Shown here piece after piece: positions 8,858 through 52,371 of a stretch of DNA of 58,697 bases (positions within the stretch are counted from its first letter, which is position 1; each line of letters starts with the position of its first letter). Under the pieces are notes generated by a model. The model saw nothing but the letters and a program-made list of their open reading frames with translations. It was not told the DNA's origin and searched no databases. A program made the translations under genes and the position numbers. Source of the stretch: Xanthobacteraceae bacterium (GTDB lineage Bacteria; Pseudomonadota; Alphaproteobacteria; Rhizobiales; Xanthobacteraceae). Location: NCBI GenBank assembly GCA_050725815.1, contig JBOHIG010000073.1, forward strand, positions 1-58,697, written 5' to 3'.

Positions 8858-9706
8858 TCAATTCTTCGCGCTGGTATCGCCGAGATGCTGGCCGCAGTCC
8901 ATGCGGATGGCCTCGCCGGTCATCGTGGTCGCGCCCTCGACCAGGAACAGCGCCGCGACGGCGACGTCGCGCGGCCAGATTCCCTTCTGTAGCGGAAATT
9001 CCGTCTTCGAGCGCTCGACCCGCTCGTCGTATTGCGTCTCGGTAAGGATCTTGCGCGTCCAGGCGCCCAGCATACCGCCCGGACAGAGCGCGTTCACACG
9101 CACTTCGGGCGCGAGCGCACGCGCGCTCGACAGCGTCAGATTGTTGATCGCGGCCTTCGATGCCGTATAGGCCATCGACGATCCGCCCGCGCGCATCGCG
9201 CCGACCGAGGAGATGTTGACGATCGCGGCATCGCCCGACGCCTTGAGATACGGCGCCGCCGCGCGCGTCATCTGATAGGTGCCGATCACATTGACGGCGA
9301 AGATGCGCTCGAACTCATCCTTGTTCAGAAGGTCCATGCGCCGGTGCGGAATCGGCTTGGTGGTGGCGGCGTTGTTGACCAGCACGTCGAGCCGGCCCCA
9401 TTTGTCGATGCAGGCTTTCACCAGCTTCCGGCATTCCTCGTCCTTCGACACGTCGCCCTGCACCGCGATGGCGTCGCCGCCGGCCGCCTTGCAGGCGGCG
9501 ACGATCTTGTCCGCGCCCGCTTTGTTGGTTGCGTAATTCACAACCACGTTGCAGCCGCGCGATGCGAGTATTTTCGCGCACTCGGACCCGATGCCGTCGT
9601 CGGAGCTCGAACCGGTGACGATGGCCGCCTTGCCTTTGATGTCCAACCAACCCTCCTGTCGCTGTTCCCAGTCTTGCGCGAGGGTGACCCGCGCATCCAT
9701 CTTCAT
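8858..9706 (-). CDS. Short-chain dehydrogenase/reductase (SDR)
   Basis: 'KGKAAIVTGSSSDDGIGSE' Rossmann motif, 'NNAA', and 'S...YTASKAA' catalytic Tyr-x3-Lys. Confidence 0.85.
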   Translation of the reverse strand: MKMDARVTLAQDWEQRQEGWLDIKGKAAIVTGSSSDDGIGSECAKILASRGCNVVVNYATNKAGADKIVAACKAAGGDAIAVQGDVSKDEECRKLVKACIDKWGRLDVLVNNAATTKPIPHRRMDLLNKDEFERIFAVNVIGTYQMTRAAAPYLKASGDAAIVNISSVGAMRAGGSSMAYTASKAAINNLTLSSARALAPEVRVNALCPGGMLGAWTRKILTETQYDERVERSKTEFPLQKGIWPRDVAVAALFLVEGATTMTGEAIRMDCGQHLGDTSAKN

Positions 9707-9720
9707 TGCGAAGAAGGAAG

Positions 9721-9773
9721 ATTGCCGGACATAAGGGCGTTCACACCCGTCTTCGACGGGCTATGCCGGCAAT
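9721..9773. repeat. REP-like palindromic element (outer arms attgccgg/ccggcaat)
   Basis: Shares 'ataagggcgttcac' and 'cgacgggctatg' blocks with 54284-54318. Confidence 0.7.
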
Positions 9774-9847
9774 GACACATCAGCCTCTATAGTCCGCCGT
9801 CATTCCGACGCCAAGCAGCCGCGCTCGCGTAGCCCAGAGGAAAAGCA

Positions 9848-10855
9848 CTACCGCCGCGTCATCTTTTTCATCTTGGCGAGCAGCTCCGGCGGAAAGGCCG
9901 ATGCCTTCCGCAGCACCGCTTCGATCTGCTGCCCGCTGCGCGGCGTCACTTGCAATTTGCGTTTCGCGGCCTCCTCCAGGAACGCTTTGTCCCGCATGGT
10001 TGCGTCGAAGGCGGCACGCAGCGCCGCGATACGCTCCTCGGGCACGCCGGGCGGCGCCAGCCACGGCCGGCCGGTCTCAAGCGTCGAGGCCTGGAAATCC
10101 AGGATCGCGCGCTGGTCCTCGGTCTTGGCGAACTCGAAGACGGTCGGCACGCCGAAGCGCGGCACGCGCTCGCGCTCGGTGGTGAACAGGAGCCGTACGG
10201 TGCCGTCGTCGAGCATCTTCTGGCCGGAATTGGCGAAGGCCGTGACGGTCTGGCAGATGCCGCCAACTTCGTTGCGCTGGATGGCGAGAACGATGTGGTT
10301 CGAGCCCTTATAGCCGTCGACGGTGCGGAACTTCATGCCCAGCAAATTCTTCAGCAGCATCGGCATCTCGGAGAGCGAGGTGCCGGCGCCATCGGTGCCG
10401 ACCACCAGCTCGTTCGTGAGCAGGTCCTCGGCCTTGTTCACGCCGACATCGCTGCGCGCAAAGCAGCCGCGATGGGTCAGCTCCGGGCTGCCGATCCAAT
10501 GGAATTTCATCGGATCGAACTGCACGTTGGGCTTCTTGGCGAAGGCGTAGTGCGGGATGTTGCGGCTGACAGAGCCGAGGACGGTACCGTCACGCGCAGC
10601 GCGGTTATAGAGGTGGTTGGCCGCGATCAGCGAGCCCGCGCCCGGCATGTTCTCGACGACAAAGTTGGGGTTGCCCGGCACGTGCCTGCCCAAATGGCGC
10701 ACGATGAAACGCACCCACATGTCGTAGTCGCCCGGCGAGGTGCCGACGATCACGCGGATGGTCTTGCCCTTGTAGAAGTCGGGGGCGGGCTCGGCCGCTG
10801 CGGGCGCGGCGGCCAAGCAAGCCGCCAAAGTGAGAGCAGACAGCAGGCGCGTCAT
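9848..10855 (-). CDS. Bug/TctC-family periplasmic solute-binding protein (orphan)
   Basis: Signal peptide 'MTRLLSALTLAACLAAAPAAA'; 'FYKGKTIRVIVGTSPG...VVENMPGAGS'. ATG 10855 is preceded by GGAGGAG. Confidence 0.8.
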   Translation of the reverse strand: MTRLLSALTLAACLAAAPAAAEPAPDFYKGKTIRVIVGTSPGDYDMWVRFIVRHLGRHVPGNPNFVVENMPGAGSLIAANHLYNRAARDGTVLGSVSRNIPHYAFAKKPNVQFDPMKFHWIGSPELTHRGCFARSDVGVNKAEDLLTNELVVGTDGAGTSLSEMPMLLKNLLGMKFRTVDGYKGSNHIVLAIQRNEVGGICQTVTAFANSGQKMLDDGTVRLLFTTERERVPRFGVPTVFEFAKTEDQRAILDFQASTLETGRPWLAPPGVPEERIAALRAAFDATMRDKAFLEEAAKRKLQVTPRSGQQIEAVLRKASAFPPELLAKMKKMTRR

Positions 10856-29249: not shown

Positions 29250-29516
29250 GGTGTGCTCCTTTGCCGATTGCCCGCCCGCTACCGGCAAATTCCTTCTGTC
29301 ATCGAATGTTCCCGTCCACGCCGCGGCAAAATATGCGGTTCTGTGTGCGCAGACCCGCTCCGATCACCGCGCACGGCAGGCGACAACGGTGGGATGAGCC
29401 CCACCGCATTGCGTCGTCCCGTCCAGATCGAGAACTCGGGCTCCTACCCAACTCCTTCGCTTGTATCGCAGCCGATGAAATTGGGGAACGACGAGCTCCG
29501 CACGATCAATCATGGA

Positions 29517-30308
29517 CTAAGGATGAAAATAATAGGCGATCCCAACTCGGCCGGTGTGCGCCGCTGCATCAAAACGCCCTGTCGCGACAGCAGTGCTAGT
29601 TTGTGGGATGACGCCCTGCGCGGTTCGCCTAAAAGTTCCTCCAACATCACCATCCATGAAGCTGCTATATCGATATTCGGCTCGCATAGTCCAATGGCCT
29701 GCGATTTTTCTTTCAATTCCAGCACCAACAATCGGGCCGTGAAGCCCGAAATTGGGAAGCACATCGCTGGCCGAAATCTCGAAGCGAGCGTATGTCCATC
29801 CAGCCAAAATGTAGGCAAGCGTATCATTTGAGACGAGGTAACCAGCGCGGACGAAGGCTGCGGCAGACCATCGATGTGGAATGGTGAAAAGGGTGTCTTG
29901 TGTCGTCAACTCGGGAGGAATAGGCGCCCGTTGAACCGTGAGTATTCTCTCAACACCGCGCATGTTTATCGAATTGCCGGCAAAGCCTCCTTCGACTTGA
30001 GCGCCTACGATAACTCGCGTGCCGAATTGCTGGTTATATCCGACATAGAGATCACTGACATATCCCGTATCCCGCCCACTCGCGATTGCATTGACCGTCT
30101 GCGTGAACGTCCCGAAGGGAGATGTGTTAACGTTTTGCCTATTTCCAATTGAATCCAGGCTGATAAACGACGCGCCAGCTGACGCGCCAACGTAGAAGCC
30201 GGACCATCCAGCGATCGGATAACGCGGCGCTGTGTCGGCGGCTGTGCCGAGATTTGGAAAGATTGAGATCCAGAAGCCAACAAGAAGTACCCCTCGAAGG
30301 TGCAGCAT
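29517..30308 (-). CDS. Outer-membrane beta-barrel protein (Omp25/OmpA-like barrel family)
   Basis: Signal peptide, 'GWSGFYVGASAG...', alternating beta-strand pattern and a C-terminal aromatic '...RVGIAYYFHP'. Lies in a lower-GC patch (sampled lines about 47-62%). Confidence 0.7.
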   Translation of the reverse strand: MLHLRGVLLVGFWISIFPNLGTAADTAPRYPIAGWSGFYVGASAGASFISLDSIGNRQNVNTSPFGTFTQTVNAIASGRDTGYVSDLYVGYNQQFGTRVIVGAQVEGGFAGNSINMRGVERILTVQRAPIPPELTTQDTLFTIPHRWSAAAFVRAGYLVSNDTLAYILAGWTYARFEISASDVLPNFGLHGPIVGAGIERKIAGHWTMRAEYRYSSFMDGDVGGTFRRTAQGVIPQTSTAVATGRFDAAAHTGRVGIAYYFHP

Positions 30309-30582
30309 GATGAACTCCCAAATTTGAGGACGTGCCACTCAGACGGCACACAACCAGAACTTGAAGGCAATATCGTACCGTCGCAAGGCCTATCTTCCGG
30401 TTGATCGCGAACCGCGCAATCGAGATCGGAGGCCGATACAGCAAACGAAGCGGTCGATGAGGGACGCCGAGAGCGGTTCGCAAGAGACCTCGCGAATCGC
30501 TACCGAAAAAGCCGAGCTTCGACCCTGTGCGTGAAACGAAGAGAGTCTAGCGGCGCCGCGGACAACTCGCAGCGTCGCAACC

Positions 30583-30706
30583 AGCCCGATTCAGCTGTCT
30601 AGCCGCTTGCTGATGAGCTGGTATTTCGCATCGAATTTCAGGTCGTACTGCGCCCGCCGCACACGGCATCATCGACCTCGAAATGGCGGTCCTCGTCGTC
30701 CCATTC
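30583..30706 (-). pseudogene. Frameshifted 124-bp duplicate of the 3' end of the PepSY-like gene (copy of 28987-29111)
   Basis: By-eye alignment gives roughly 85-90% identity with a 1-nt deletion. It encodes '...EWDDEDRHFEVDDAV' and then loses frame. Confidence 0.75.
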
Positions 30707-30737
30707 GCGGAGTATCAGGAGCGGAGTGTCGTGCCGC

Positions 30738-30932
30738 TCAAAATGCTTTCGGTAGTCCCGCGTCCTTCAAATAGCCGTTGGCGGAATGGCGCGACACGAT
30801 TTTGCCGTCGACCGGGAATGTGATGTTAGTGATCGGGCTGTACCATATTTCGTGATCGCCCTTGCCTTGACGCACGACATGGCACCCGGCTTCGCGGAGA
30901 ATGCGTCGCACGTCGCGAGAAAAATCCGCCAC
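30738..30932 (-). CDS. hicA: HicA-family type II toxin (mRNA interferase)
   Basis: 'DVRRILREAGCHVVRQGKGDHEIWYSPITNITFPVDGKIVSRHSANGYLKDAGLPK' fits the HicA G-x-H core. GTG 30932 is 2 nt after the hicB stop; an alternative TTG lies at 30983. Confidence 0.7.
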   Translation of the reverse strand: MADFSRDVRRILREAGCHVVRQGKGDHEIWYSPITNITFPVDGKIVSRHSANGYLKDAGLPKAF

Positions 30933-30934
30933 AC

Positions 30935-31180
30935 CTATGCAACCAGTAACTCGGTCCGATCCACGACCCGAAGTTCCTGCCAATTGATTACGATCGAAAC
31001 GTTGCGAGGCGGGCGCCCGATCCTCGATTCAAGGACATCAGGAACGATGACCTTCAGTCGCTCGATCAAGGCCTCGCGAGAGGGCGCTTCGGTGGTGATC
31101 CGAGCCTCTGCGCTGGTCGCAACCCACATCCCCGCTTCCACATCGTGGAAGGCGTCGAAGGAGAGGCCATGTTCGCCCAT
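30935..31180 (-). CDS. hicB: HicB-like antitoxin (DUF1902-type N-domain)
   Basis: 'FDAFHDVEAGMWVATSAEARITTEAPSREALIERLKVIVPDVLE'. ATG 31180 is 18 nt from the tRNA 3' end. The track ORF reads on through the tRNA. Confidence 0.65.
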   Translation of the reverse strand: MGEHGLSFDAFHDVEAGMWVATSAEARITTEAPSREALIERLKVIVPDVLESRIGRPPRNVSIVINWQELRVVDRTELLVA

Positions 31181-31197
31181 GCTGAGCCTCTGCGGTC

Positions 31198-31273
<76 letters not shown>

Positions 31274-31376
31274 GATCGCCCTGCGGAAGCATCCGCCAAG
31301 CCGGCGTCCTGTAGCAAAGCGACTTTGGCAAGTCCAGCAAGCATCGGGCGTTTCGCACGGGCTTGCGAGGACCTCC

Positions 31377-31410
31377 AAAAATGGAAAACCGCCGGGCGTG
31401 AACCCGGCGG
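31377..31410 (-). terminator. Rho-independent terminator after the Spy-like gene
   Basis: Minus strand: CCGCCGGG-ttcacg-CCCGGCGG followed by TTTTCCATTTTT. Confidence 0.8.
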
Positions 31411-31473
31411 CTCCCATGCGTCGGCGGTCGTGTCGGGGGGCTGGGAGTACGACCGCCGCGCTAGCGAAACTCG

Positions 31474-32313
31474 TTAGAGCGTCTCCCCCACCGGCGCCTT
31501 GGCGCGGAACTCCTGCTCGACCGGGGCGACATCGGCGCGGGTCTTGGCGGTGAAGGTGCTGACCGGCTCGGACAGCGTTCGGGTCTTGGCTGTGAAGGCG
31601 ACGATCGGGGCCGCTCCGGTCTTGGCCGAGAACGCGACCGCCGGAGCGGGCGTCTCGCCGACCACCGCGGCGGGCGCACCGGGCACCGACTTGGCGCTGA
31701 AGGTGACCACCGGAGCCTCAGCGACCTCGGCGGTCTGCGTCTTGCGGCTGAACATCGGCAGCCCATCCGTCTCTTGCGGAGCGACCTCGGTATGGCGATG
31801 TCCGCGATTCCAGCCGGGCCGCCGGCCACCGTCGCGATTTTGCATGCCGCGGCGCCCACGCGGGCCGGCCATGCGGGCGAGCACGTTGAAGCGCCGCCGC
31901 TGAGCCTCGTCGAGGCTCGAATAGAGCGGGCCCATGGCGTCGGCGAAATTCCTCAGCGCGGCGCCGGTCTCCGACAGGCGGATCGCGCGCTGGCGCATGC
32001 GCTCGACCGGATCGCGGGTGCGCGCCTGCCTGTCACGGCGCGCCGTGCGCCTGGCGTCGATACGATCCATGCGAATCTTCTGCAGCGAACGGGCGGCCTT
32101 CTCGAAGGCCGGCCAGTGCGCCTGCTGCTCGGCGCTAAGCACGAGGCCGGCGCGCAGCGCCGCGAGCCGCGCGTCGGCAAACGCGCGCATATCTTCGATG
32201 CTCGGCTGCCAGCGACGCGTCCCCTCGGGACGGCCCTGACGCTGCTGGGCATAGGCAATGGTGGACCCGGCGATGACCAGCGCGGTCGTGCCGGCGAGGA
32301 TTGCTTTCCACAT
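31474..32313 (-). CDS. Periplasmic Spy/CpxP (LTXXQ)-like protein with a repetitive C-terminal tail
   Basis: Signal 'MWKAILAGTTALVIAGSTIAYA'. LTXXQ-like 'LSAEQQAHW' and 'LDEAQRRRF'. The tail holds six F-[STR]-[AR]-K-[TSA] units. Confidence 0.65.
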   Translation of the reverse strand: MWKAILAGTTALVIAGSTIAYAQQRQGRPEGTRRWQPSIEDMRAFADARLAALRAGLVLSAEQQAHWPAFEKAARSLQKIRMDRIDARRTARRDRQARTRDPVERMRQRAIRLSETGAALRNFADAMGPLYSSLDEAQRRRFNVLARMAGPRGRRGMQNRDGGRRPGWNRGHRHTEVAPQETDGLPMFSRKTQTAEVAEAPVVTFSAKSVPGAPAAVVGETPAPAVAFSAKTGAAPIVAFTAKTRTLSEPVSTFTAKTRADVAPVEQEFRAKAPVGETL

Positions 32314-32722
32314 GGAACTCTCCTGCAATGTCCGTGACGAATATTAGAGATGCCATGCTCGAATAGGCAAATTAAAGTTTGGTCACATTACATCAAAGTA
32401 ATATTGATGTATAAGCGTTCAGCTGACGTCTTCAAATCTGCGCGGTGTTCCGCGATTCCGGCCATTGCCTGCGGCAACGGCGCGACACATGGCCGCGCGG
32501 ACGGCGGTCACTGGGCGTGGCCTGATGCGAGGGTAATTGCATTGATAGTCGAGACGACGGTCGATCGGCATGGTCTGCGCGGATGAGGCACCGTAATGGC
32601 AATCTGCAAACGGGCTGGTCGAGGGCGCAAACGTCGGCGATGATAGGTGCAAGCCTCCAGCCGGTCGCTGCGTGCAGCCGGTCAGGGCAACAGAACAGCT
32701 AGCTACCAGAAGGGAGAACGTG

Positions 32723-36633: not shown

Positions 36634-37905
36634 CTATACAATCAGGAAATCGGACCGCGTGATCGCCAGATGTGTCGTCACATTGGCAAATACGACGTGC
36701 GCCATTCCGCCAATCCCATCCACATCGAATAGCAGCTTGCCGGTGCTTGGATTGTAGACGATGCGGTCGCTGGCATCGTGCGCGCTTGTGCCGACGTGAA
36801 ACTTGTCTGTCGACAAGACGCCCGCGGGCAGCCCTTTGAAAAACGAGTTTTCCAATACGAAGATATCGGCGGGAGGTGCGAAGTCGGTGATCGTGTCGAC
36901 ATTGGTCGTGGCACTCAGCGCGGCGCTGAACACGAACTTGTCGTTCCCGGCGCCACCCGTCAGCTTGTCCTTGCCAGCGCCGCCGACAAGAGTATCGGAG
37001 TTGTTGCCCGCGCTAATGGTGTCGTTTCCCCCGACTCCGACAATCGTGTCCCTGCCGGAGGTGCCGAAAAGCTTGTTGGCGGCGCTGTCGCCGAGGATGA
37101 TCTTCAGCCCGCGGGTATCGTTGTCGGCCTCCGCGCTCTCCGCGACCTTCTGCTTGATATCGGCAATGACCCCCAGATAGTAGGTGCCGGGATCGAGGTT
37201 GCCCGGAAGCGTAGGCAGGATGTTTTCCGCTTCCGACTTGCCGGCGCTCAGCGTCCCCTCACCTCGCGTCGCCACGAGCTTGTCGGCGGTGGTGATGGCG
37301 GCGTCCTTGGAAAGATAGAGGCCGGAGGTCGACGCGGCCGCGGTCTTGTTGCCGGTGTTCTCGACCTCGTAGGCGACGGTGCTGCCGTTGAAGACGAAGT
37401 CCGCGATCGACAGGTTGGGACCCGGCGGCAGCAGGTCGAAGTCGCCGTCCAGGTTGGCGACGACCTTGTAGTTGAGATGGGCAGGCAGGTGCGCATCCAC
37501 CTCGACGTCGACATCGACCCGGTTCGACGACGGCACATAGACCTGCGTGAAAAGGAACGAGATATCCTCGACCCAATCGCCAATTCCGGCTTGAAGAAAG
37601 TCCCGGTAGGAAACTGAGGGGGTCCCGTCGCCCACGACGAGCCTGTTGCCGCTCGGGTTGAGTCCCCTCACCTCGTCATAGTGTCCGCTCGAATCCCGTC
37701 CGGCATTGGCGTGGTCCGACGTCCAAAGCACGACGATGCGCTCGCTACCGCCGATCAACTTCGTGCCGTCGAACCGCAAAGTCGCGGTCAGGGTCGCGGC
37801 GAAGAAGATGCCGAAGATTTCGTTCTGCGACGTTATTGGATTGAAATGACTGCCGCTGCCGGTCAGCGCGACCGTCGCGACGTAAGACTTGCTGGTGATG
37901 GCCAT
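36634..37905 (-). CDS. RTX-type calcium-binding secreted protein with a CARDB-like middle domain
   Basis: Five nonapeptide repeats 'GTSGRDTIVGVGGNDTISAGNNSDTLVGGAGKDKLTGGAGNDKFVF'. No N-terminal signal peptide. Lower GC (about 55-58% in sampled lines). Confidence 0.75.
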   Translation of the reverse strand: MAITSKSYVATVALTGSGSHFNPITSQNEIFGIFFAATLTATLRFDGTKLIGGSERIVVLWTSDHANAGRDSSGHYDEVRGLNPSGNRLVVGDGTPSVSYRDFLQAGIGDWVEDISFLFTQVYVPSSNRVDVDVEVDAHLPAHLNYKVVANLDGDFDLLPPGPNLSIADFVFNGSTVAYEVENTGNKTAAASTSGLYLSKDAAITTADKLVATRGEGTLSAGKSEAENILPTLPGNLDPGTYYLGVIADIKQKVAESAEADNDTRGLKIILGDSAANKLFGTSGRDTIVGVGGNDTISAGNNSDTLVGGAGKDKLTGGAGNDKFVFSAALSATTNVDTITDFAPPADIFVLENSFFKGLPAGVLSTDKFHVGTSAHDASDRIVYNPSTGKLLFDVDGIGGMAHVVFANVTTHLAITRSDFLIV

Positions 37906-40973: not shown

Positions 40974-42683
40974 TTAAAGTCCCTTGATCCAACCGGCATC
41001 GATCAGCATCCGGTTGAAACGCCTCGCCTCCGCCCCTCCGGCACAGGTGTAGAATAGCCCGCGGCAACGTCCGAAGATCTTTTTCTGCTCGGCAAAGGTC
41101 GAGTCGAGCGGCAGGCCGGCGGCTTCGAGCAGGATCAGCGGGAGATAAGGCGCCTCCACGTTGTCGATGGCCGACGCCATGGTCGCCGGTTTGTAGTTGA
41201 CGGTGTCGATGGCGTAGTAGGTGGTGAAGTATTTCGGATGGTTCACCATGATCCGTTGTGCCACCTCGGTTGGCTTCAGCGACGGTTCGAGGATGGCGGG
41301 GGCGAAATCCGGCTGGTGATCGCCATAGCGGATCAGCAGGAAGGATTCACCGGGGAAGTCGCGCTTGAGGCGCTCCAGGAATTCCTGATAGTGCCGCATG
41401 CCGAGCGTCTGCCGCCGGAGGTACTCGTCCACGAGCTGCGTGTTGCCCGGGTTCTTCCAGCCGAGCGTGAGCTCGTGCCGCCAGCCGTAATCCCAGGGGT
41501 GATGGTTGGCCGAGAGATAGATGAACATGAACATCGGTCCCCCGGCGCGCTCGCGCGCGAACATGCGGGCGGCCGTATCGTAGTAGTAGTCATCGGGCTC
41601 GATATCGTTGGCGCGCAGCGCGTTCGAGTCGTAGAAGCGCTGCACGCCCGCCGTGCTCTGGAATTTGCGGGCGGACATGAACGCGCCGTAGGCCGGGTAG
41701 AGCGAGAACGTCCGGTACCCGCAGCGGCGCAGCACGCTCGGCAGGCCGCGCGTGACGCGCCCGACGGCAATGCGGGTGACGAAATAGGAGAAACGGCCGA
41801 AGCTGCGCGCCGAGAGGCCGGTCAAGACGTTGTATTCCGTGTACCAGCTCGAACCGCCGGCGGTTTCCACGACGAATTTACGATGCACTCCGTCGAGCGA
41901 GCGGAAGTGGCGTCCGTAGCCCGGCGGTGCGATCACGTTCGGCGCGGTGCGGATGTCGAAGGCGGATTCGTCATGCACCAGGATGATGTGGGGCGGCTTG
42001 GCGGCCGGCTCGCAAGTCGCCTCGGCGGCCGTCCCGAGGCGATCAGGGGTGAAGGCGTCCGACTCCAGAAGCCCGCGCGAAAAGTACTGCCCGACCGCAT
42101 CCACGCCCGAGCGTGCAAAATGCGACACGTGCTTGTCGGGATAGAAGCCGTCGTGCGGATCGAACGGAAACAGCAACGACAAACCGACCAGTCCCGACAG
42201 GGAAACGCCGAAACCGGCGAACGCATGTCTGCGTGACATCCGGAATGGATCGAAGAGCCAGAGCAACGCCAGGATGGGGACCACCACCGCGGCGGTGATC
42301 AGGACATGCACCCCGAGACCGGGAAAGATCGTGAAGAGATAGCGCAGCGCCGCAGGATTGATGATCAGCAGATCGACGAAATCCGCCGTCATCCAGAGCA
42401 CCCGGTACTTGTATTGCGACACCAGGATCAGGACGACGACTATCGTCAGCGACAACGCCGCTGCCGCCGCCGGACGGCGCAGGATTGCAATCCAGGCGAA
42501 ATTGAGCAGGCCCCAGAACAGCAGATACGCGGCGATGTAGGGAAACTCATGGTATTCGATCCGCACCATCACGATCAGGGCGGCGAGGTGGATCAGCGCG
42601 AGCGGGATGATCTGCCAAAAGCGGCGCGGGGCGCGGGAATTGGCGGCCCAGCGGCTGGTCAACACTGGATGGGAGGACGACAT
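40974..42683 (-). CDS. Membrane-anchored sulfatase-like (alkaline-phosphatase superfamily; LtaS/OpgB-like) transferase
   Basis: N-terminal TM bundle, then 'HIILVHDESAFD...GGSSWYTEYNVLTGL...YGDHQP'. ATG 42683 lies inside track ORF 40974..42776. Confidence 0.65.
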   Translation of the reverse strand: MSSSHPVLTSRWAANSRAPRRFWQIIPLALIHLAALIVMVRIEYHEFPYIAAYLLFWGLLNFAWIAILRRPAAAAALSLTIVVVLILVSQYKYRVLWMTADFVDLLIINPAALRYLFTIFPGLGVHVLITAAVVVPILALLWLFDPFRMSRRHAFAGFGVSLSGLVGLSLLFPFDPHDGFYPDKHVSHFARSGVDAVGQYFSRGLLESDAFTPDRLGTAAEATCEPAAKPPHIILVHDESAFDIRTAPNVIAPPGYGRHFRSLDGVHRKFVVETAGGSSWYTEYNVLTGLSARSFGRFSYFVTRIAVGRVTRGLPSVLRRCGYRTFSLYPAYGAFMSARKFQSTAGVQRFYDSNALRANDIEPDDYYYDTAARMFARERAGGPMFMFIYLSANHHPWDYGWRHELTLGWKNPGNTQLVDEYLRRQTLGMRHYQEFLERLKRDFPGESFLLIRYGDHQPDFAPAILEPSLKPTEVAQRIMVNHPKYFTTYYAIDTVNYKPATMASAIDNVEAPYLPLILLEAAGLPLDSTFAEQKKIFGRCRGLFYTCAGGAEARRFNRMLIDAGWIKGL

Positions 42684-42876
42684 GGCTACGTGCTCATGCC
42701 CGGCAATGACCCACCCCGTTCCGGCGCATGGAGCGTCCGCATTAGAAATGCAACAATTGTGTCTTTGCAAGGACACAAAATAGTCACGGCCCGATCAATG
42801 AACGCCCGGCGACGAACATGGTTTCCGGGGTGGCAACATAAGTTTACGGTGCGGTTATGCGCTACCGGCTGACTCC

Positions 42877-45270: not shown

Positions 45271-46293
45271 TCAATTGAACCCGAGTGTTTCCTTCAATTC
45301 GGCGATGACCGGCTTCGGAGTGGCATAAGCTTCCGCAGTGATGCGCTGCAGTTCCTCGCCCTTGACCAGCTCGACGGGAGTACGGAGCTTCTTGGCCATG
45401 GCCTTGAATTCCGCGCTTGCCATCATGCTCTCGAACGCCTTTCGCAATGTTGCGACACGCGCCTTCGGCGTCCCGGGCGGAACCCAGAAGCCCATGCCGA
45501 TTCTGTTGGCGGCCTCCAGGAAGGTGATCATCTGCTTCGTCTTCTCGTCTTTCACGAGGCTCTTCAGGCTCGGGACGTCGGGCAGCTCCTTGATGGGCGG
45601 CCCATACTGGACGAAGTGGATCAGCTTTTTGTCGCGCAGCCAGTTGGGCTTTCCGGCGGTCCAGCCCGACCAGTACTGCATGCGGCCGTGCACCTCACCC
45701 TGCTCCATCGCCTGATTGATCTCGGCGCCGCCTTTGTAGCCCATGACGATCTTGAACTTGGTTCCCAGCGTGCGGTTCATCAGGGTCGGAACCAGGAAGG
45801 TCTCCGAGCCCTTGCCAGAGGACCCGACGATCACTTCTTTCTGCTTGGCCTCGGCAAGGGTCTTGGCCGGCGTCGATTCCTTCCAAACCGAGATGACCGC
45901 GGGGCGCGGCACCAGCGATCCGATCCACTGGAATTTCGAGCCGTCGAACTTGACGTTACGCAGCAGCGGGAGCGTTACGGAGGGCGCGAGCACTTCCGCG
46001 ATGTAGGTGCCGTCTTTCGGCGCAACCGTATAGGCATGCGCCGCGCCAACCGCACCGCCCGCGCCCGGGCGCGATTCGATGATGACGTTGGGATTGCCGG
46101 GGATGTGCTTGCCGAGGAGATCGACCACCATCCGGCCGTAAAGGCCGAGCGTGGCCCCCAGGCTGGACGGAATCATCACGGTGACGGTCTTGCCGCGAAA
46201 GAAGTCCGCCTCGTCGGCCGAGGAGGCGGGCGTACAGGTGGCGGCCAGCGCTGCGACTCCAGCGATGGCCGCGAGAGCTTTGCGATAGAGCAT
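45271..46293 (-). CDS. Bug/TctC-family periplasmic solute-binding protein (orphan)
   Basis: Internal ATG 46293: 'MLYRKALAAIAGVAALAATCTPASSADEADFFRGKTVTVMIPSS...IIESRPGAGG'. Confidence 0.85.
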   Translation of the reverse strand: MLYRKALAAIAGVAALAATCTPASSADEADFFRGKTVTVMIPSSLGATLGLYGRMVVDLLGKHIPGNPNVIIESRPGAGGAVGAAHAYTVAPKDGTYIAEVLAPSVTLPLLRNVKFDGSKFQWIGSLVPRPAVISVWKESTPAKTLAEAKQKEVIVGSSGKGSETFLVPTLMNRTLGTKFKIVMGYKGGAEINQAMEQGEVHGRMQYWSGWTAGKPNWLRDKKLIHFVQYGPPIKELPDVPSLKSLVKDEKTKQMITFLEAANRIGMGFWVPPGTPKARVATLRKAFESMMASAEFKAMAKKLRTPVELVKGEELQRITAEAYATPKPVIAELKETLGFN

Positions 46294-46722
46294 TTTACGT
46301 CTCCCTAGGAAGCGGCATTCGTTGTTGTGCGCAATACTGCGATGGAAGCCGGACCGGCAGAAGGGGCGAAGGGAGGACCAATTGGCGCAGTGCCACGCCT
46401 GATCAAGCCCGCTCCAATCGGCGTTCTGCCCGAGCGCATAGCACAGGCGCAGCGACATCGCGGCTATTGCACCCCGCGTTTCGTCCCAAATGGTGGAATA
46501 CGCTGCGTTATTTTCGCCGGATGGCGCTCCCCCAATACCGGTGCGACGCAAGCAGGAGGCACCGTCATCCCATTTGGATGACGATATGGGACCAGCGGCA
46601 ATTTTTCACACGTCACGGCCGGCGGATTGCTGGAGGTCGGGAGCTCGGCCCGCTGCGCGCCGGCGGAAAGCAATGCGCGCCCGCCATCGGCGAGCGCGAT
46701 TGAAAACAAAGGCTCGGCCGCC

Positions 46723-47495: not shown

Positions 47496-48866
47496 ATGCT
47501 TTTCAACTCGTATCAATTTCTGCTGGTGTTTCTGCCGGCGGCGATCCTGATCTACTGGTTTGCCGACCGCAGCGACCGCGCCCGCAACTGGACGCTGATC
47601 GCCCTGTCACTGGCCTTCTACGGTTATTGGGACGTGCGGCTGCTGCCGCTGATGATTGCGTCGATCCTGGTCAACTGGTGGGTCGCGTGGCTGTACGCCG
47701 CGAGCAGGCAGCGCATCTTCATCACCGTCGCGATCGTCGCAAACCTGCTGGTGCTGGCCGTCTTCAAGTATGCGAATTTCTTCGCGGAGAGCCTGTCGGG
47801 ACTGCTCGATATCCCGTCCACGCCGCTCGACCTCGTGCTGCCGCTCGGCATCTCGTTCTTCACCTTTCACCACATCATGTACCTCGTCGACCTCGGGCGC
47901 GGCAAAGCGACGACGTATCCGCTCGACCGCTACGCGCTCTACATCTGCTTTTTCCCGCAGGTTCTGTCCGGTCCGCTGGTGCGCTGGTCGGAGGTCATGC
48001 ACCAGTTCGGGCGCAAGACCTTCGTTCCGGGTCATGCGCGGCGCTGCGTGTTCGGCTTGACGCTGATCACGCTCGGGCTGGTGCAGAAGGTGTATCTCGG
48101 CGACCGGCTCGCCAGCCAGGTGAACCGCGTCTACGAGAAGATCGCCGAGGGAGCGATCACGGCGTCGGAAGCCTGGGTGGCGGTGCTCGGCTTCACGTTC
48201 CAGATCTTCTTCGATTTTTCCGGCTACACCGACATCGCGATCGGGACGGCGCTCATCTTCGGGATCGTGCTGCCGCTCAACTTCGACTCACCCTATCGCG
48301 CGGCCAGCATCCGCGACTTCTGGCGCCGCTGGCATATGACTCTCTCGCGCTTCCTGCGCGACTACCTCTACATCCCGCTGGGCGGCAACCGCTTCGGCCT
48401 GCCGCATCAGGTCATGGCGCTGCTGGTGACCATGACGCTCGGCGGCCTATGGCATGGCGCCGGCTGGACCTTCGTGATCTGGGGACTGCTGCACGGCATC
48501 GCGCTGACGGCGGTGCACCTGTGGACGCGCTTCCTGCCGCCGCTCCCGTTGCTGCTTGGCTGGGCGCTCACATTCGTATTCGTGGTGGCGACCTGGGTGT
48601 TCTTTCGAGCGCCGACCTTCGATGTCGCCTGGCGCATGTTCGGGTCACTGCTTGGCGACCCGCAGTTCACCACCGAGCGGGGCTGGCGCACCATCGGCGT
48701 CGCGGCATTCTGCGCCATCGTATTGCCGGCAAGCTATCGGATCGCACAATGGCTGACGAAGCGCCCGAGCTATGTCGTCGCTCTCGTCCTCGGAGTGGCG
48801 GGCGCTGCGATCTTGTTCGAGCTTGGACAGGAAAAGGCGTATGAGTTCATCTACTTCCGATTTTGA
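47496..48866 (+). CDS. MBOAT-family membrane O-acyltransferase (AlgI/DltB/PatA-like), copy 1
   Basis: 'MLFNSYQFLLVFLP...', 'ISFFTFHHIMYLVD', 'FWRRWHMTLSRFLRDYLYIPLGGNR', 'LGGLWHGAGW'. Confidence 0.9.
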   Translation: MLFNSYQFLLVFLPAAILIYWFADRSDRARNWTLIALSLAFYGYWDVRLLPLMIASILVNWWVAWLYAASRQRIFITVAIVANLLVLAVFKYANFFAESLSGLLDIPSTPLDLVLPLGISFFTFHHIMYLVDLGRGKATTYPLDRYALYICFFPQVLSGPLVRWSEVMHQFGRKTFVPGHARRCVFGLTLITLGLVQKVYLGDRLASQVNRVYEKIAEGAITASEAWVAVLGFTFQIFFDFSGYTDIAIGTALIFGIVLPLNFDSPYRAASIRDFWRRWHMTLSRFLRDYLYIPLGGNRFGLPHQVMALLVTMTLGGLWHGAGWTFVIWGLLHGIALTAVHLWTRFLPPLPLLLGWALTFVFVVATWVFFRAPTFDVAWRMFGSLLGDPQFTTERGWRTIGVAAFCAIVLPASYRIAQWLTKRPSYVVALVLGVAGAAILFELGQEKAYEFIYFRF

Positions 48867-49866
48867 GCGCGATCTGGCGCTGGATGCGAGCGCCGACCCG
48901 CGCTGGCGGCGCTGGATTGCGCTCTATCTGGCCGTAGCCGTCGGAGCGACCGGCATCTGTTTCCTGGCTCTGGTGCTGCTCGACCCGTTCTCCACCGGAC
49001 GGCTGACGCCGATCAAGTCGTTCAACATCACCACGTCCTATCGAATCCTGGCGCATGCGGGGCGCATCCGAAATCCCGCCTTCGACTCCGCCATCATCGG
49101 CAACTCACGCAGCTTCCCGATCGAGCCAGCGCGGCTCAGCGCGTTGACCGGGCACCGCATTGTCAACCTTGCCATGCCGGGCATGTACCCGCCTGAGCAG
49201 TTGTTCTTCGTGGAGACATTCGTGCGGCAGCATCGCGGGAGCGCGCCGCTGATCATCTGGCAGTTGGACGTCGCCTGGTGCCAAAGCGAGCAGCGGCACA
49301 CGGAGTACGACATTCCGAAATGGGTCTATGCGGAATCGGACTTCGAATACCTCCGCCACATCGTATCGCGCACGGCGTTGCGCGCTGCTTACGCGAGGCT
49401 GCAGATCCTGCTCGGACTCAAGAAAGATGCCGCGCGCCTGGACGGGTATGAGCCTTGGATCCCGGACGACGTGCCGGCCCGACGCGCGGCGATGCTGAAG
49501 GCGCCAGCGCAAACGTATGGCGAGCCGGTGAGCGACCCGTTTCCCAATCTCGACGCCCTTAAGACGGGACTGGCCGCGATCGAGCCGGCATCGCCGGTGG
49601 TGCTGTGGTTTCCACCGGTCTATGTCGGCGCCCTGCCGGTACCGGGCAGTGCCGCCGAGGCGCGTCTCGCCGAGTGCAGAGCCCGACTGCGCGCCATCGT
49701 CGCGGGGCGGCCGCACACGGAACTCGTCGATCTCTGGAAGGACGCGCCGGGCCTGCACGATCCCGACAATTTCATCGACCATATGCACTTCCTCGATCCG
49801 GTGGCGCGCGATGTCGAGCGCGTGCTCGCCGAGCACATTCGCACGCTCGCGCCGCGGCCGCGCTGA
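48841..49866 (+). CDS. Membrane-anchored hypothetical protein with SGNH-like GNS and DxxH motifs (putative MBOAT partner), copy 1
   Basis: ATG 48841 overlaps the MBOAT-1 3' end by 26 nt. TM 'WIALYLAVAVGATGICFLALVLL'; 'AIIGNSRS'; C-terminal 'NFIDHMHF'. Confidence 0.7.
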   Translation: MSSSTSDFERDLALDASADPRWRRWIALYLAVAVGATGICFLALVLLDPFSTGRLTPIKSFNITTSYRILAHAGRIRNPAFDSAIIGNSRSFPIEPARLSALTGHRIVNLAMPGMYPPEQLFFVETFVRQHRGSAPLIIWQLDVAWCQSEQRHTEYDIPKWVYAESDFEYLRHIVSRTALRAAYARLQILLGLKKDAARLDGYEPWIPDDVPARRAAMLKAPAQTYGEPVSDPFPNLDALKTGLAAIEPASPVVLWFPPVYVGALPVPGSAAEARLAECRARLRAIVAGRPHTELVDLWKDAPGLHDPDNFIDHMHFLDPVARDVERVLAEHIRTLAPRPR

Positions 49867-49942
49867 AGGGGCATCGCGGGACTTGTCCGCCAAATGACGA
49901 TCTGGCAGGGTCCGCCCGCCGCGTCATGAGTGCCGACAGCAA

Positions 49943-51325
49943 ATGTTGTTCAATACCTACGGGTTCCTGCTGGTCTTCCTGCCCGCGGCGCTCCTGATCT
50001 ATTGGTTTGCCGACAAGAGTGAGCGCTGGCGCACCTGGGTGCTGGTCGCGCTGTCGTGCGTGTTCTACAGCTACTGGGACGTGCGCTTCCTGCCGCTGAT
50101 GATCGGCTCCATCCTGTTCAATTGGTGGATGGCCAATCTTTACGCCGCAACCAAGAAGCACATCCTCATCAAGGCGGCGATCGTCGGCAATCTGCTCGTC
50201 CTCGCCTTCTTCAAATACACGAACTTCCTCGCCGACACTTTCACGATCCTGCTGGGCGCGCAGATATCGCATCTGTCGCTGGCGCTGCCGCTCGGCATCT
50301 CGTTCTTCACCTTCCACCACATCATGTACCTGGTCGATCTCGGCCGCGGTAAGGCGCCGACCTATTCGCTCGACCGCTACGCGCTCTACATCTGCTTTTT
50401 CCCGCAGGCTATCGCTGGCCCGATCGCACGTTGGAGCGAGGTCATCCATCAGTTCGGTCACCGCGTTTTCGCGCCGGGATGGGAGCGGCGCGCCGCGCTG
50501 GGCGCGATCTTCATTATCATCGGTCTGGCGCAGAAGACGTTGCTTGCCGATCCGATTGGCAAGGCGATCGACCCGATCTATGCGCAAGCGCTGACCGGGG
50601 AACTGATACCGGGGCGCGCCTGGCTTACATTGGGCTTCGCGTTCCAGGTGTTCTTTGACTTCTCCGCCTATTCCGACATCGCCATCGGGCTGGCATTGCT
50701 CTTCGGCGTGAAGCTTCCGATCAATTTCGACGCGCCATTCCGCGCCACCACGATCCTGGACTTCTGGCAACGCTGGCACATGACGCTCGGGCGTTTCCTG
50801 CGCGACTACGTATTCATGCCGCTGTCGAACATTCAAATCGGCGGCCGCGCGCTGCGGACCACGCGCCTGCTGGTGGCGCTGCTCCTGACCATGGCGATTT
50901 GCGGGCTCTGGCACGGCGCCGGCTGGACCTATGTGTTGTGGGGCACGTTGCAGGGCGTCGCCATGGTGACCGCGGCGATATGGCGGCGCTACGGGCCGCC
51001 GCTGCCGTCCATGATCGGCTGGGCGCTGACGATCGGCTTCTTCGTCATCACCTCGGTCTTCTTCCGGGCAGGCTCGCTCGAAGCGGTGTGGCGCATCTAC
51101 GACGGCTTGGCGTACATTCCGAGCTGGGCCAGCTCGCAGAATCGCGATGCCGTCCTCATCGGCGCCATCGCGGCGGTCGCGCTGCCGGCTACGCACAAGC
51201 TCGTCGAGCCGCTAGCCAGGATTCCACGGCAGGTCACTGCCGTGGGGCTGGCAGTGCTCGCGATGGTCGCCATGGCGGCGATCGCGGGCCAATCGAACTT
51301 TGAATTCGTGTACTTTCAGTTCTAA
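49943..51325 (+). CDS. MBOAT-family membrane O-acyltransferase, copy 2
   Basis: About two-thirds identical to copy 1 by eye over the N-terminal half. It has 'WQRWHMTLGRFLRDYVFMPLSNIQIGGRA', so the PLGGNR motif is altered. Confidence 0.9.
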   Translation: MLFNTYGFLLVFLPAALLIYWFADKSERWRTWVLVALSCVFYSYWDVRFLPLMIGSILFNWWMANLYAATKKHILIKAAIVGNLLVLAFFKYTNFLADTFTILLGAQISHLSLALPLGISFFTFHHIMYLVDLGRGKAPTYSLDRYALYICFFPQAIAGPIARWSEVIHQFGHRVFAPGWERRAALGAIFIIIGLAQKTLLADPIGKAIDPIYAQALTGELIPGRAWLTLGFAFQVFFDFSAYSDIAIGLALLFGVKLPINFDAPFRATTILDFWQRWHMTLGRFLRDYVFMPLSNIQIGGRALRTTRLLVALLLTMAICGLWHGAGWTYVLWGTLQGVAMVTAAIWRRYGPPLPSMIGWALTIGFFVITSVFFRAGSLEAVWRIYDGLAYIPSWASSQNRDAVLIGAIAAVALPATHKLVEPLARIPRQVTAVGLAVLAMVAMAAIAGQSNFEFVYFQF

Positions 51326-51348
51326 AAGCGTCGTCGGGCAAGCGACAG

Positions 51349-52371
51349 ATGAGCACCGCCGAATTGACCGATGACGTTGACTTGAGCCGCCGCTGGCGGC
51401 GCTGGCTGATTACGCTCGTCTCGATCATCGCGGGCACCATGGCCTTGGTCTACGGCGGCGTGTTGTTGCTCGACCCGTTCTCCACCGGCCGCTTCACGCC
51501 GATCAAGCGGATCGACATCGCCACAAAGAACATCACCATGGGCCATGTCGCCCGCGTCCGCGATCTTCGCTTCGATGCCGCCATCGTCGGCAATTCCCAT
51601 GCGGTGACGTTCGATCCCGGACGGCTCAGCGTGCTCACGGGGCGAACCTTCGCGCAGTTGTCCTCGCCCGGCTACGGGGCGCGCGAGCAGTTCGTCGTGA
51701 CCCGCGCGTTCGTTCGCGAGCGGCGCGGCCGCGCGCCCGCGCTGGTCCTGGTGCTCGACCGGCAGGCATGCGCGCCGGACGAGAACCTGGCGCGGTTCGG
51801 CGACAGCTTTCCGGACTATCTGTTCGAGGAGTCACGGCTCAACTATTTGCGCCGCATCTTCTTTCCGGAGGCGATCCGTTCGGCCGGCTATCGCTTGCTG
51901 ATGCTGATGGGCTTCGCGCGCGACCGCCAGCCGCGAGACGGCGTCGATGCCGGCGCATTGAAGGCGATGCAGGGCCTATCACCCCGGCACCGGGCGGAGA
52001 TCGAGGCGCTCAGGCGCCCGACCAGCAGCCCCCCGCACGGCGCGCCGTTCCCGGCGGTCGCGTTCTGGCGGAGCTTCCTCGCGGGGCTCGATGCGGAGAC
52101 GCGCTTGGTCCTGTATTTCGGGCCGTTGCCGATCGGCCGGTTGCCGCTGCCGGGCAGCGCGGCTGAGGCCCGGCTTGCCGCCTGCAAGGCAGCCTACCGC
52201 AAGCTCGCGGTCGAGCGGCCTCACACCGTACTGATCGACCGCTGGATCGACCACGCCTTCGCGCGCGACATCGGCAATTTCACCGACACCGACCACTTCC
52301 GCAGCGGGCTGGCGACAAACCTGGAGCCAGAGATCGCGGCGGCGTTAAAGCACGCGCTATCGGAGCGGTAG
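51349..52371 (+). CDS. Membrane-anchored hypothetical protein with SGNH-like GNS and DxxH motifs (putative MBOAT partner), copy 2
   Basis: 'RWRRWLITLVSIIAGTMALVYGGVLLLDPFSTGRFTPIK' parallels copy 1; 'AIVGNSHA'; C-terminal 'NFTDTDHF'. Confidence 0.7.
   Translation: MSTAELTDDVDLSRRWRRWLITLVSIIAGTMALVYGGVLLLDPFSTGRFTPIKRIDIATKNITMGHVARVRDLRFDAAIVGNSHAVTFDPGRLSVLTGRTFAQLSSPGYGAREQFVVTRAFVRERRGRAPALVLVLDRQACAPDENLARFGDSFPDYLFEESRLNYLRRIFFPEAIRSAGYRLLMLMGFARDRQPRDGVDAGALKAMQGLSPRHRAEIEALRRPTSSPPHGAPFPAVAFWRSFLAGLDAETRLVLYFGPLPIGRLPLPGSAAEARLAACKAAYRKLAVERPHTVLIDRWIDHAFARDIGNFTDTDHFRSGLATNLEPEIAAALKHALSER

Follow-up and report, generated by a model that had tools for sequence, protein, structure and literature searches.

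A block of four genes is located on contig JBOHIG010000073.1 of a Xanthobacteraceae bacterium (assembly GCA_050725815.1), within a stretch of 58,697 nucleotides (positions 1 to 58,697 of the forward strand) that was analyzed as a whole and is hereafter called the window. The block consists of two consecutive cassettes, each formed by a gene for a membrane-bound O-acyltransferase (MBOAT) followed by a gene for a partner protein, with all four genes on the forward strand. MBOAT-1 (47496–48866, 456 amino acids) overlaps partner-1 (48841–49866, 341 amino acids) by 26 nt (48841–48866, read directly from the sequence); a spacer of 76 nt (49867–49942) separates partner-1 from MBOAT-2 (49943–51325, 460 amino acids), and partner-2 (51349–52371, 340 amino acids) follows MBOAT-2 after a gap of 23 nt. 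These limits confirm the open reading frame (ORF) calls and agree with the gene order, strand, overlap and gaps described in a first-pass annotation of the same DNA. The GC content at third codon positions (GC3) is 0.80–0.88 in the four intact ORFs, as expected of real genes in a window of 64% GC. The order PEBP, MBOAT, partner, MBOAT, partner is also found on an independent metagenome contig of 33 kb, whose partner-1 is 79% identical, and the layout is therefore inherited and not an assembly artefact.

Fold and conservation of the partner proteins

The two partners are 37% identical (E = 2e-70). Both contain the motif LLDPFSTGR.TPIK, an I(I/V)GNS block with Ser89 in partner-1 and Ser83 in partner-2, and an NFxDxxHF block, each of which had been pointed out in the first-pass annotation and was found again in both proteins. 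The family to which they belong is large: an exhaustive profile search retrieved 1,926 cluster representatives (at 50% identity) with E ≤ 1e-3, and 397 with E ≤ 1e-30, and a genome scan located relatives in at least 440 species-level genomes. Eighty loci were fetched from these genomes, and the neighbourhood counts given below rest on them. Where the loci could be classified to class, they are from Alphaproteobacteria, and the taxa include Xanthobacteraceae (with Bradyrhizobium), Bosea, Chelatococcus, Enterovirga, Methylocapsa, Microvirga, Acetobacteraceae and Rhodospirillales. The RefSeq name of one Bradyrhizobium member is "hypothetical protein". A search of a word-indexed protein collection with the partner profile reached no wider than the single sequence and returned uninformative names, and a tblastn search of the PLSDB plasmids with partner-1 gave no match.

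Conservation was scored across 99 diverse relatives, in partner-1 numbering. P49, G87, S89, C147, C279 and H316 are invariant in all 99 sequences, and each of D48, G53, R77, P96, D143, D297 and D313 is kept in at least 90% of them. The catalytic residues that had been proposed earlier are among these, the Ser and the His in the first group and the Asp in the second. In partner-1 they correspond to Ser89 (49105–49107), Asp313 (49777–49779) and His316 (49786–49788), and in partner-2 to Ser83 (51595–51597), Asp313 (52285–52287) and His316 (52294–52296); the Cys pair is formed by Cys147 and Cys279 in the former and by Cys141 and Cys279 in the latter. A positively charged RWRRW patch precedes the single hydrophobic helix of the partner and, together with the invariant Cys pair, points to an N-in, C-out protein with a catalytic domain that would be periplasmic and disulfide-bonded.

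Confident models of both partners were obtained with AlphaFold from the family alignment (pLDDT 91.1 for partner-1 and 91.2 for partner-2; pTM 0.87). In both, a long helix at the N-terminus leads into an alpha/beta domain. The predicted transmembrane anchor spans approximately residues 28–46 of partner-1 and 23–41 of partner-2, and the domain that follows is, by fold matches, a DltD-like SGNH domain. The Gly-Asn-Ser motif is positioned directly after the first strand and the Asp-x-x-His motif directly before the last helix, an arrangement that is canonical for SGNH enzymes. A Foldseek search of the PDB returned almost exclusively SGNH/GDSL enzymes for both models. For partner-1, DltD structures (6o93, 3bma and 6pfx) rank 2, 3 and 11–12 and give the longest alignments, and for partner-2 the top six PDB matches are all DltD, with E values of the DltD matches between 7.5e-5 and 1e-3. 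The likeness of the models to DltD is one of fold, short of demonstrated orthology. The proposal in the first-pass annotation of a divergent SGNH-like family with one N-terminal transmembrane anchor is borne out by the models and the fold matches, with DltD and other SGNH enzymes as the nearest structures.

This placement was reached only through structure prediction followed by Foldseek, because sequence-only searches gave nothing usable. A Pfam search with a single sequence produced only a sub-threshold GDSL match (E = 0.042), and the 99 members gave sub-threshold matches to Lipase_GDSL_2 in 16, to SGNH in 3 and to ALGX in 1 (best E = 0.0011). AlgJ and AlgX, which had also been suggested as references for the partners, proved to be the wrong comparison: both are circularly permuted, with DxH before Ser (D190, H192 and S288 in AlgJ), and carry a cap domain (PMC4148444), whereas partner-1 presents Ser89 ... 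Asp313-x-x-His316. The locus defines a sizeable and unnamed family of DltD-like partners in the Alphaproteobacteria, the members of which are called 'hypothetical protein' where a source gives a name.

Motifs of the MBOAT proteins and an insertion in MBOAT-2

Both MBOAT proteins match PF03062 (110.1 bits for MBOAT-1 and 71.6 bits for MBOAT-2; gathering cut-off 27). They are 54% identical and 69% similar by alignment (E = 6e-180), so that the earlier estimate of about two-thirds identity, made by eye, was too high; the stretch FFTFHHIMYLVDLGRGKA (residues 121–138), reported as verbatim in the two copies, is present in both. DltB is the best-scoring solved MBOAT for either copy (E = 1.5e-25 and 93 bits for MBOAT-1; E = 3e-35 and 125 bits for MBOAT-2). 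By alignment, the His of the RWHMTL motif (His280 in MBOAT-1, His279 in MBOAT-2) corresponds to His289 of DltB, and the His of the GLWHGAGW motif (His320 in MBOAT-1, His324 in MBOAT-2) to the universally conserved catalytic His336. Each protein carries a C-terminal FxYxxF hexapeptide, F-I-Y-F-R-F with Tyr453 in MBOAT-1 (48846–48863) and F-V-Y-F-Q-F with Tyr457 in MBOAT-2 (51305–51322), and 67 of 68 related MBOATs likewise end in the motif.

The hexapeptide was defined experimentally in PatA and DltX as an "acyl shuttle": PatA auto-acetylates the Tyr of FxYxxF and PatB then takes that acetyl group, and in the Dlt system the motif is carried by the separate microprotein DltX (PMC12148441). Because FxYxxF is located at their own C-termini, both MBOATs of the window are assigned to the PatA/AlgI class, in which the shuttle is fused, rather than to the DltB class. 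The scores of 164.2 and 166.5 bits against the DltB equivalog TIGR04091, which has a cut-off of 375, are consistent with this assignment, and related MBOATs are labelled 'AlgI' in IMG. Among the metagenome-assembled genomes (MAGs), three loci (L019, L026 and L027) have an MBOAT frame (at approximately 8.5–9.9 kb) that is truncated or in two tblastn pieces, and that may be a pseudogene or reflect an assembly frameshift.

The MBOAT gene is located directly upstream of the partner gene, on the same strand, in approximately 72 of the 80 loci. Variant layouts include one MBOAT with two partners, partner-MBOAT-partner and partner-only arrays, and the MBOAT, partner, MBOAT, partner layout of the window is seen in none of the 80. 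In Enterovirga, partner genes occur without an MBOAT within 7–10 kb (three in tandem in L035, 7588–11014; L015, 9938–11005; L080, 7122–8213), and the partner gene of L015 adjoins pyrimidine-biosynthesis genes.

The reading frames of cassette 1 are closely interlocked. The MBOAT-1 codons TAT GAG TTC ATC TAC TTC (Y-E-F-I-Y-F) read ATG AGT TCA TCT ACT TCC (M-S-S-S-T-S) in the +1 frame, and the start codon of partner-1 thus sits within the shuttle-motif codons of MBOAT-1 (48841–48866). An embedded partner start of this kind, 26 nt ahead of the MBOAT stop, is found in 35 of 68 related loci. The overlap accounts for the MSSSTS with which many partners begin, and the conservation of this N-terminus thus results from two frames sharing the same DNA. 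The embedded start suggests translational coupling of MBOAT-1 and partner-1. Cassette 2 has no embedded start, with TTC GAG instead of TAT GAG, and partner-2 begins 23 nt past the MBOAT-2 stop. No sigma-70-like promoter or convincing terminator was found inside the four-gene block, spacer included, and RNA folding of the 76-nt spacer gave no significant structure (z = -0.74).

A difference between the two MBOATs is found at the IPLGGNR motif, which is canonical in MBOAT-1 (residues 293–299, by motif search) and corresponds to MPLSNIQIGGRA in MBOAT-2. The segment M-P-L-S-N-I-Q-I-G-G-R-A (50816–50851) takes its place and includes a five-residue insertion, SNIQI (50825–50839), in the arrangement PL-SNIQI-GGR. 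The first-pass annotation had stated that MBOAT-2 lost the motif; the canonical form is indeed not intact, but the change is not a simple loss, as the insertion interrupts the motif. Of the 21 MBOAT loci with the full five-residue insertion, 20 encode a fatty-acid-AMP ligase (FAAL)-type ligase and a PP-binding carrier, that is, an acyl carrier protein (ACP), within 8 kb, against 1 of the 44 loci scored without it (Fisher p = 1.5e-14). The lone exception, L014, has a four-residue form of the insertion. L018 has this form too, on a short contig in which neither ligase nor carrier is seen. In the related loci, the ligase consists of an AMP-binding domain and a DIP2-like C-terminal domain, and its best NCBIfam matches are PRK05850 (fatty-acid-AMP ligase) and FadD32. 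The ligase and carrier genes are convergent in the Bradyrhizobium/Xanthobacteraceae type of locus and co-directional in the Acetobacteraceae/Rhodospirillales type, and because the linkage is kept in two gene orders, we argue that it is functional rather than mere synteny. The insertion-type loci represent a Dlt-like four-gene set with a fused-shuttle MBOAT.

The inserted segment aligns gap-free to residues 302–313 of DltB, which form the horizontal helix HC. DltC docks on this helix via Met302, Val305, Ile306 and Met309, with salt bridges at Lys312 and Arg317 (PMC11035591). MBOAT-2 is also the higher-scoring of the two MBOATs against DltB (125 versus 93 bits). We infer that MBOATs of the insertion clade resemble DltB in being supplied by a carrier protein, and PatA/AlgI in having the shuttle fused. 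According to a 2025 synthesis (PMC12148441), a carrier protein is absent from the non-Dlt pathways, and literature searches retrieved no characterised FAAL + ACP + MBOAT + SGNH system; a carrier-fed, fused-shuttle hybrid thus appears to be undescribed. The helix insertion that replaces PLGGNR provides a simple sequence marker that distinguishes the carrier-protein-linked MBOAT clade from the canonical type, and the window holds both types next to each other in one operon-like unit.

Several other neighbours were observed in loci with the FAAL-type ligase. The ligase and a PP-binding carrier of approximately 100 amino acids are located 1–3 kb downstream of the partner in L001, L011, L012, L021, L022, L029, L037, L045, L056, L058–L061, L065, L067, L072, L074 and others. 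In Bradyrhizobium-type loci (L011, L021, L022, L038, L045, L056, L058, L060, L065, L067 and L074), the gene that immediately precedes the MBOAT, in the same direction, encodes a DesA-family membrane fatty-acid desaturase, and most of these loci have a fused MFS/spermidine-synthase-like membrane protein farther upstream and an L,D-transpeptidase beyond the ligase.

The description of the locus as a tandemly duplicated cassette is loosely right, with the correction that any duplication appears to be old or complex: MBOAT-2 is 61% identical to the MBOAT of another genome (L013) and 54% identical to MBOAT-1. The best match of MBOAT-1 is MBOAT-2, narrowly (499 versus 492 bits), and partner-1 and partner-2 are mutual best hits. 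A neighbour-joining tree has MBOAT-1, though without an insertion, as the basal branch of the FAAL + ACP clade, and this topology was not used for dating the duplication.

Putative acyl relays and candidate acceptors

Extracytoplasmic acylation of envelope polymers in bacteria relies mainly on MBOAT-SGNH relays, the mechanism of which was settled only in 2023–2025. We consider it likely that the locus encodes two paralogous relays of the PatA/PatB and DltB/X/D kind. The first-pass annotation had arrived at the same core idea, SGNH-like partners that form two acyl relays, and the fold, the catalytic residues and the linkage in approximately 72 of the 80 loci support it. Each MBOAT would take an acyl group from a cytoplasmic thioester donor, and its His320 (MBOAT-1) or His324 (MBOAT-2) would drive the acylation of its own C-terminal Tyr453 or Tyr457 at the periplasmic face. 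The acyl-Tyr would be handed to Ser89 or Ser83 of the membrane-anchored, DltD-like partner, and the Ser-His-Asp triad of the latter would esterify a hydroxyl of an envelope molecule made elsewhere in the genome. This relay chemistry is predicted for both cassettes.

The two cassettes probably differ in their donor, whereas the first-pass annotation had put forward a difference in acceptor, which would be a further possibility. The best-supported distinction between them, as judged from sequence comparison, would be on the donor side of the MBOAT, where the insertion, its correspondence to the docking helix of DltB and the FAAL + ACP linkage come together. Cassette 1, with its canonical IPLGGNR MBOAT, would most likely use an acyl-CoA donor (acetyl-CoA by precedent). 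For cassette 2 we give roughly even odds to two options: its acyl group may be a longer or unusual one supplied by a carrier protein whose gene is elsewhere, or its donor may again be acyl-CoA.

The paradigm of MBOAT-SGNH relays is PatA/PatB of Neisseria and Campylobacter (PMC12148441). Like PatA/PatB, each cassette pairs an MBOAT and an SGNH protein in two genes; the MBOAT has the C-terminal FxYxxF Tyr and the conserved His, the partner has one N-terminal transmembrane anchor and the order Ser ... DxxH, and the window has no carrier or ligase. Unlike PatA/PatB, the partners have no detectable sequence similarity to the SGNH proteins of Pfam, NCBIfam or the PDB and have DltD, not PatB, as best or near-best structural match, no ape1 esterase gene is nearby, and MBOAT-2 contains the helix insertion. 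The acyl-CoA donor that characterizes the PatA/AlgI/WssH class is consistent with a window free of carrier and ligase, but in the MBOAT-2 clade the FAAL + ACP linkage argues against such a donor.

The resemblance to Dlt is found in DltB as the best solved MBOAT, in DltD as the best or near-best structural match with the same architecture of transmembrane anchor and SGNH domain, in the ligase and carrier that accompany the pairs of the MBOAT-2 clade as DltA and DltC do, and in the inserted segment, which equals the DltB docking helix in length and aligns to it. By contrast, neither MBOAT comes near the cut-off of the DltB equivalog, FxYxxF is part of the MBOAT itself rather than of DltX, the ligase of the related loci is of FAAL type (PRK05850, FadD32-like) and not DltA, and the window contains neither ligase nor carrier; unlike the Gram-positive hosts of Dlt, the organisms are Gram-negative Alphaproteobacteria without teichoic acids. 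With AlgI/AlgJ/AlgF/AlgX and WssH/WssI the cassettes share an AlgI-type MBOAT with a fused shuttle and an SGNH-like partner that is predicted to be periplasmic, but the AlgF/WssG-like gene and the polymer synthase genes of alginate and cellulose O-acetylation are missing at the locus. From the same taxonomic neighbourhood comes the 'pat-ape3' pair of B. japonicum (Weadge, Pfeffer and Clarke 2005, PMC1199599), in which an AlgI-like MBOAT gene is followed by a divergent SGNH-like gene and which, by description, also has a non-GDS block I and a catalytic D to H without consensus between them. The 2005 work differs in that it predicted an esterase and dealt with one cassette only, without a carrier-protein link (PMC1199599).

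A number of observations weigh against the relay assignment. The TM-scores of the partners to DltD are modest (about 0.4–0.46) at an identity of 10–13%, neither the single sequences nor the 99-member profile connected them by sequence with a family in Pfam, NCBIfam or the PDB, and a clear GxND block (SGNH blocks II and III, with the Gly and Asn of the oxyanion hole) was not identified in the partners, in which G104 and D143 are near-invariant. That the partners are transferases and not esterases is a prediction. On the donor side, the window has no FAAL of the clade type and no carrier protein, and L013, the locus with the nearest relative of MBOAT-2, also lacks both. MBOAT-2 alone has Gln where 22 of 24 insertion-type MBOATs have Arg, and it has Ala at a position with Arg in 20 of the 24. 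Because these two conserved Arg are lost, carrier docking by MBOAT-2 may have decayed.

The lost Arg residues and the absence of ligase and carrier neighbours would also fit a cassette, most likely cassette 2, that is a decaying and non-functional paralogue, or the partners might be esterases (de-acylases), since SGNH enzymes are mostly hydrolases and such partners were first called esterases in 2005 (PMC1199599). Several related MBOATs are, in addition, split hits in MAGs. Set against this, the four ORFs are intact with GC3 of 0.80–0.88, all catalytic residues and both FxYxxF motifs are kept, and the four-gene layout is retained in the relative with the 79%-identical partner-1. A relay is also a better fit than an antagonistic esterase to the tight coupling of MBOAT and partner, which includes overlapping frames, and PatB and DltD, the MBOAT-linked SGNH proteins that have been characterised, both act as transferases (PMC12148441). 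We therefore regard esterase function or decay as improbable, and prefer two functional relays.

As to what the relays would acylate, the leading candidates are peptidoglycan, periplasmic glucans and lipopolysaccharide/lipid A. Either cassette 1 or both could be the peptidoglycan O-acetylation system of this lineage, equivalent to PatA/PatB and acting on O-6 of N-acetylmuramic acid, which we judge to be rather unlikely. The peptidoglycan of Bradyrhizobium japonicum is 18.5% O-acetylated, and the two-gene layout recurs there as an AlgI-like 'pat' gene with one gene behind it for the membrane-associated, SGNH-like 'Ape3' (Weadge et al. 2005, PMC1199599); MBOAT-1 displays canonical motifs of PatA/AlgI type, and the neighbours across the loci are mostly housekeeping genes (topA, rnr, cysS, dksA and flagellar genes), a context free of polymer-specific genes that fits a ubiquitous acceptor. 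However, Ape3, compared by its published description, is no more than a candidate member of the partner family, and its block I was reported as G(T/S)S where 69 of 77 partners have GNS (from a retrieval pattern that allowed G[NT]S only). PatB is absent from the top 50 fold matches in which DltD is present, no gene for an Ape1 O-acetylpeptidoglycan esterase is nearby, and this reading would leave unexplained why the MBOAT-2 clade is linked to FAAL + ACP.

That the acceptor is a cyclic beta-glucan of the periplasm (an osmoregulated periplasmic glucan), acylated once it has been exported, has a low probability. A sub-clade of six loci (L012, L014, L019, L026, L027 and L029) adjoins a true NdvA/ChvA exporter, which in L012 is encoded just beyond the ligase and carrier (8858–10777, reverse strand; NF010178, 900 bits against a cut-off of 733), and a Sulfatase-family membrane protein is encoded approximately 5 kb upstream of the cassettes in the window. 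The Sulfatase superfamily includes glucan phosphoglycerol transferases. The lead is nevertheless weak, because true NdvA/ChvA is limited to this one related sub-clade of clade A, where the adjacency may be plain synteny; the Sulfatase-family protein of the window has no NCBIfam match and is not a conserved neighbour elsewhere, and a glucan synthase is seen in none of the loci. Literature searches found no acetylation of glucans by MBOATs. The 'ABC exporter' neighbours, initially taken as one cluster, were separated into two families, namely the true NdvA/ChvA of the clade-A sub-clade and an MsbA-like exporter in clade C.

We tentatively consider, as a rather unlikely possibility, an undescribed, carrier-fed third class of relay in which an insertion-type MBOAT with a fused shuttle Tyr, a DltD-like partner, a FAAL and a dedicated ACP would bring a long-chain or unusual carboxylic acid through the inner membrane and esterify an envelope lipid or glycan with it, cassette 2 of the window being an orphan member that uses a carrier encoded elsewhere. 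One role for the FAAL-linked clade, which is speculation, is the tertiary acylation of lipid A. The tertiary acyl substituents of the lipid A of Bradyrhizobium and relatives, including hopanoid-lipid A, are not known to have an assigned enzyme. The clade-A MBOAT cluster includes a protein of Bradyrhizobium sp. ORS 278 (WP_012029218.1), and literature searches found no MBOAT in work on Bradyrhizobium lipid A or hopanoids. If such systems move fatty or lipid-like acids, they would be a bacterial counterpart of the eukaryotic MBOATs that transfer lipids, and candidates for envelope acylations without an assigned enzyme in rhizobia and relatives; if they do not, the results still provide a usable annotation for a family labelled 'hypothetical protein'.

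In one clade, a NodU/CmcH-like carbamoyltransferase is encoded directly downstream of the partner (L002, 5954–7678, forward strand, and L003, L004, L009, L016, L017 and L023), and a sister sub-clade (L030, L033, L041, L062, L063 and L068) has the MsbA-like exporter. These two neighbours suggest a modified (carbamoylated), exported glycan as a further lead to the acceptor.

Surroundings of the block and other features of the window

The cassettes are flanked by genes for a PEBP protein, a TctC/Bug binding protein and an OpuA-type ABC transporter on one side, and by ilvC, ilvH and ilvI on the other. Genes for the synthesis of glycans, peptidoglycan or teichoic acids were found nowhere within approximately 15 kb of the cassettes, and both this and the flanks are as the first-pass annotation had described. 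The TctC/Bug binding-protein gene (45271–46551, reverse strand) is located upstream of the cassettes in the window and downstream, before ilvC, in the 79%-identical relative, which indicates that the surroundings of the block are locally rearranged between the window and the 33-kb contig. The Sulfatase-family membrane protein (600 amino acids, 40974–42776, reverse strand) has an LtaS/OpgB/EptA-type architecture and occupies an equivalent position on the 33-kb contig; it is not counted as part of the system. An AMP-binding gene at 17.7–19.2 kb was considered as the ligase of the window and rejected, as it is generic and 30% identical to a non-FAAL cluster member.

Farther from the cassettes, a protein of 423 amino acids (36634–37905, reverse strand) combines a CARDB domain, RTX calcium-binding repeats and a serralysin-type C-terminal domain, and is probably a type I secreted protein. 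The region 29500–32400 has a slightly lower GC content (0.61–0.62) and few ORFs of high GC3, and its translations resemble an Omp25/Omp31-like beta-barrel protein and a Spy/CpxP-like periplasmic protein. An Rfam scan of the window returned only one feature, tRNA-Lys(CTT) at 31198–31273 on the reverse strand, which falls in this lower-GC region and is the sole tRNA of the window.

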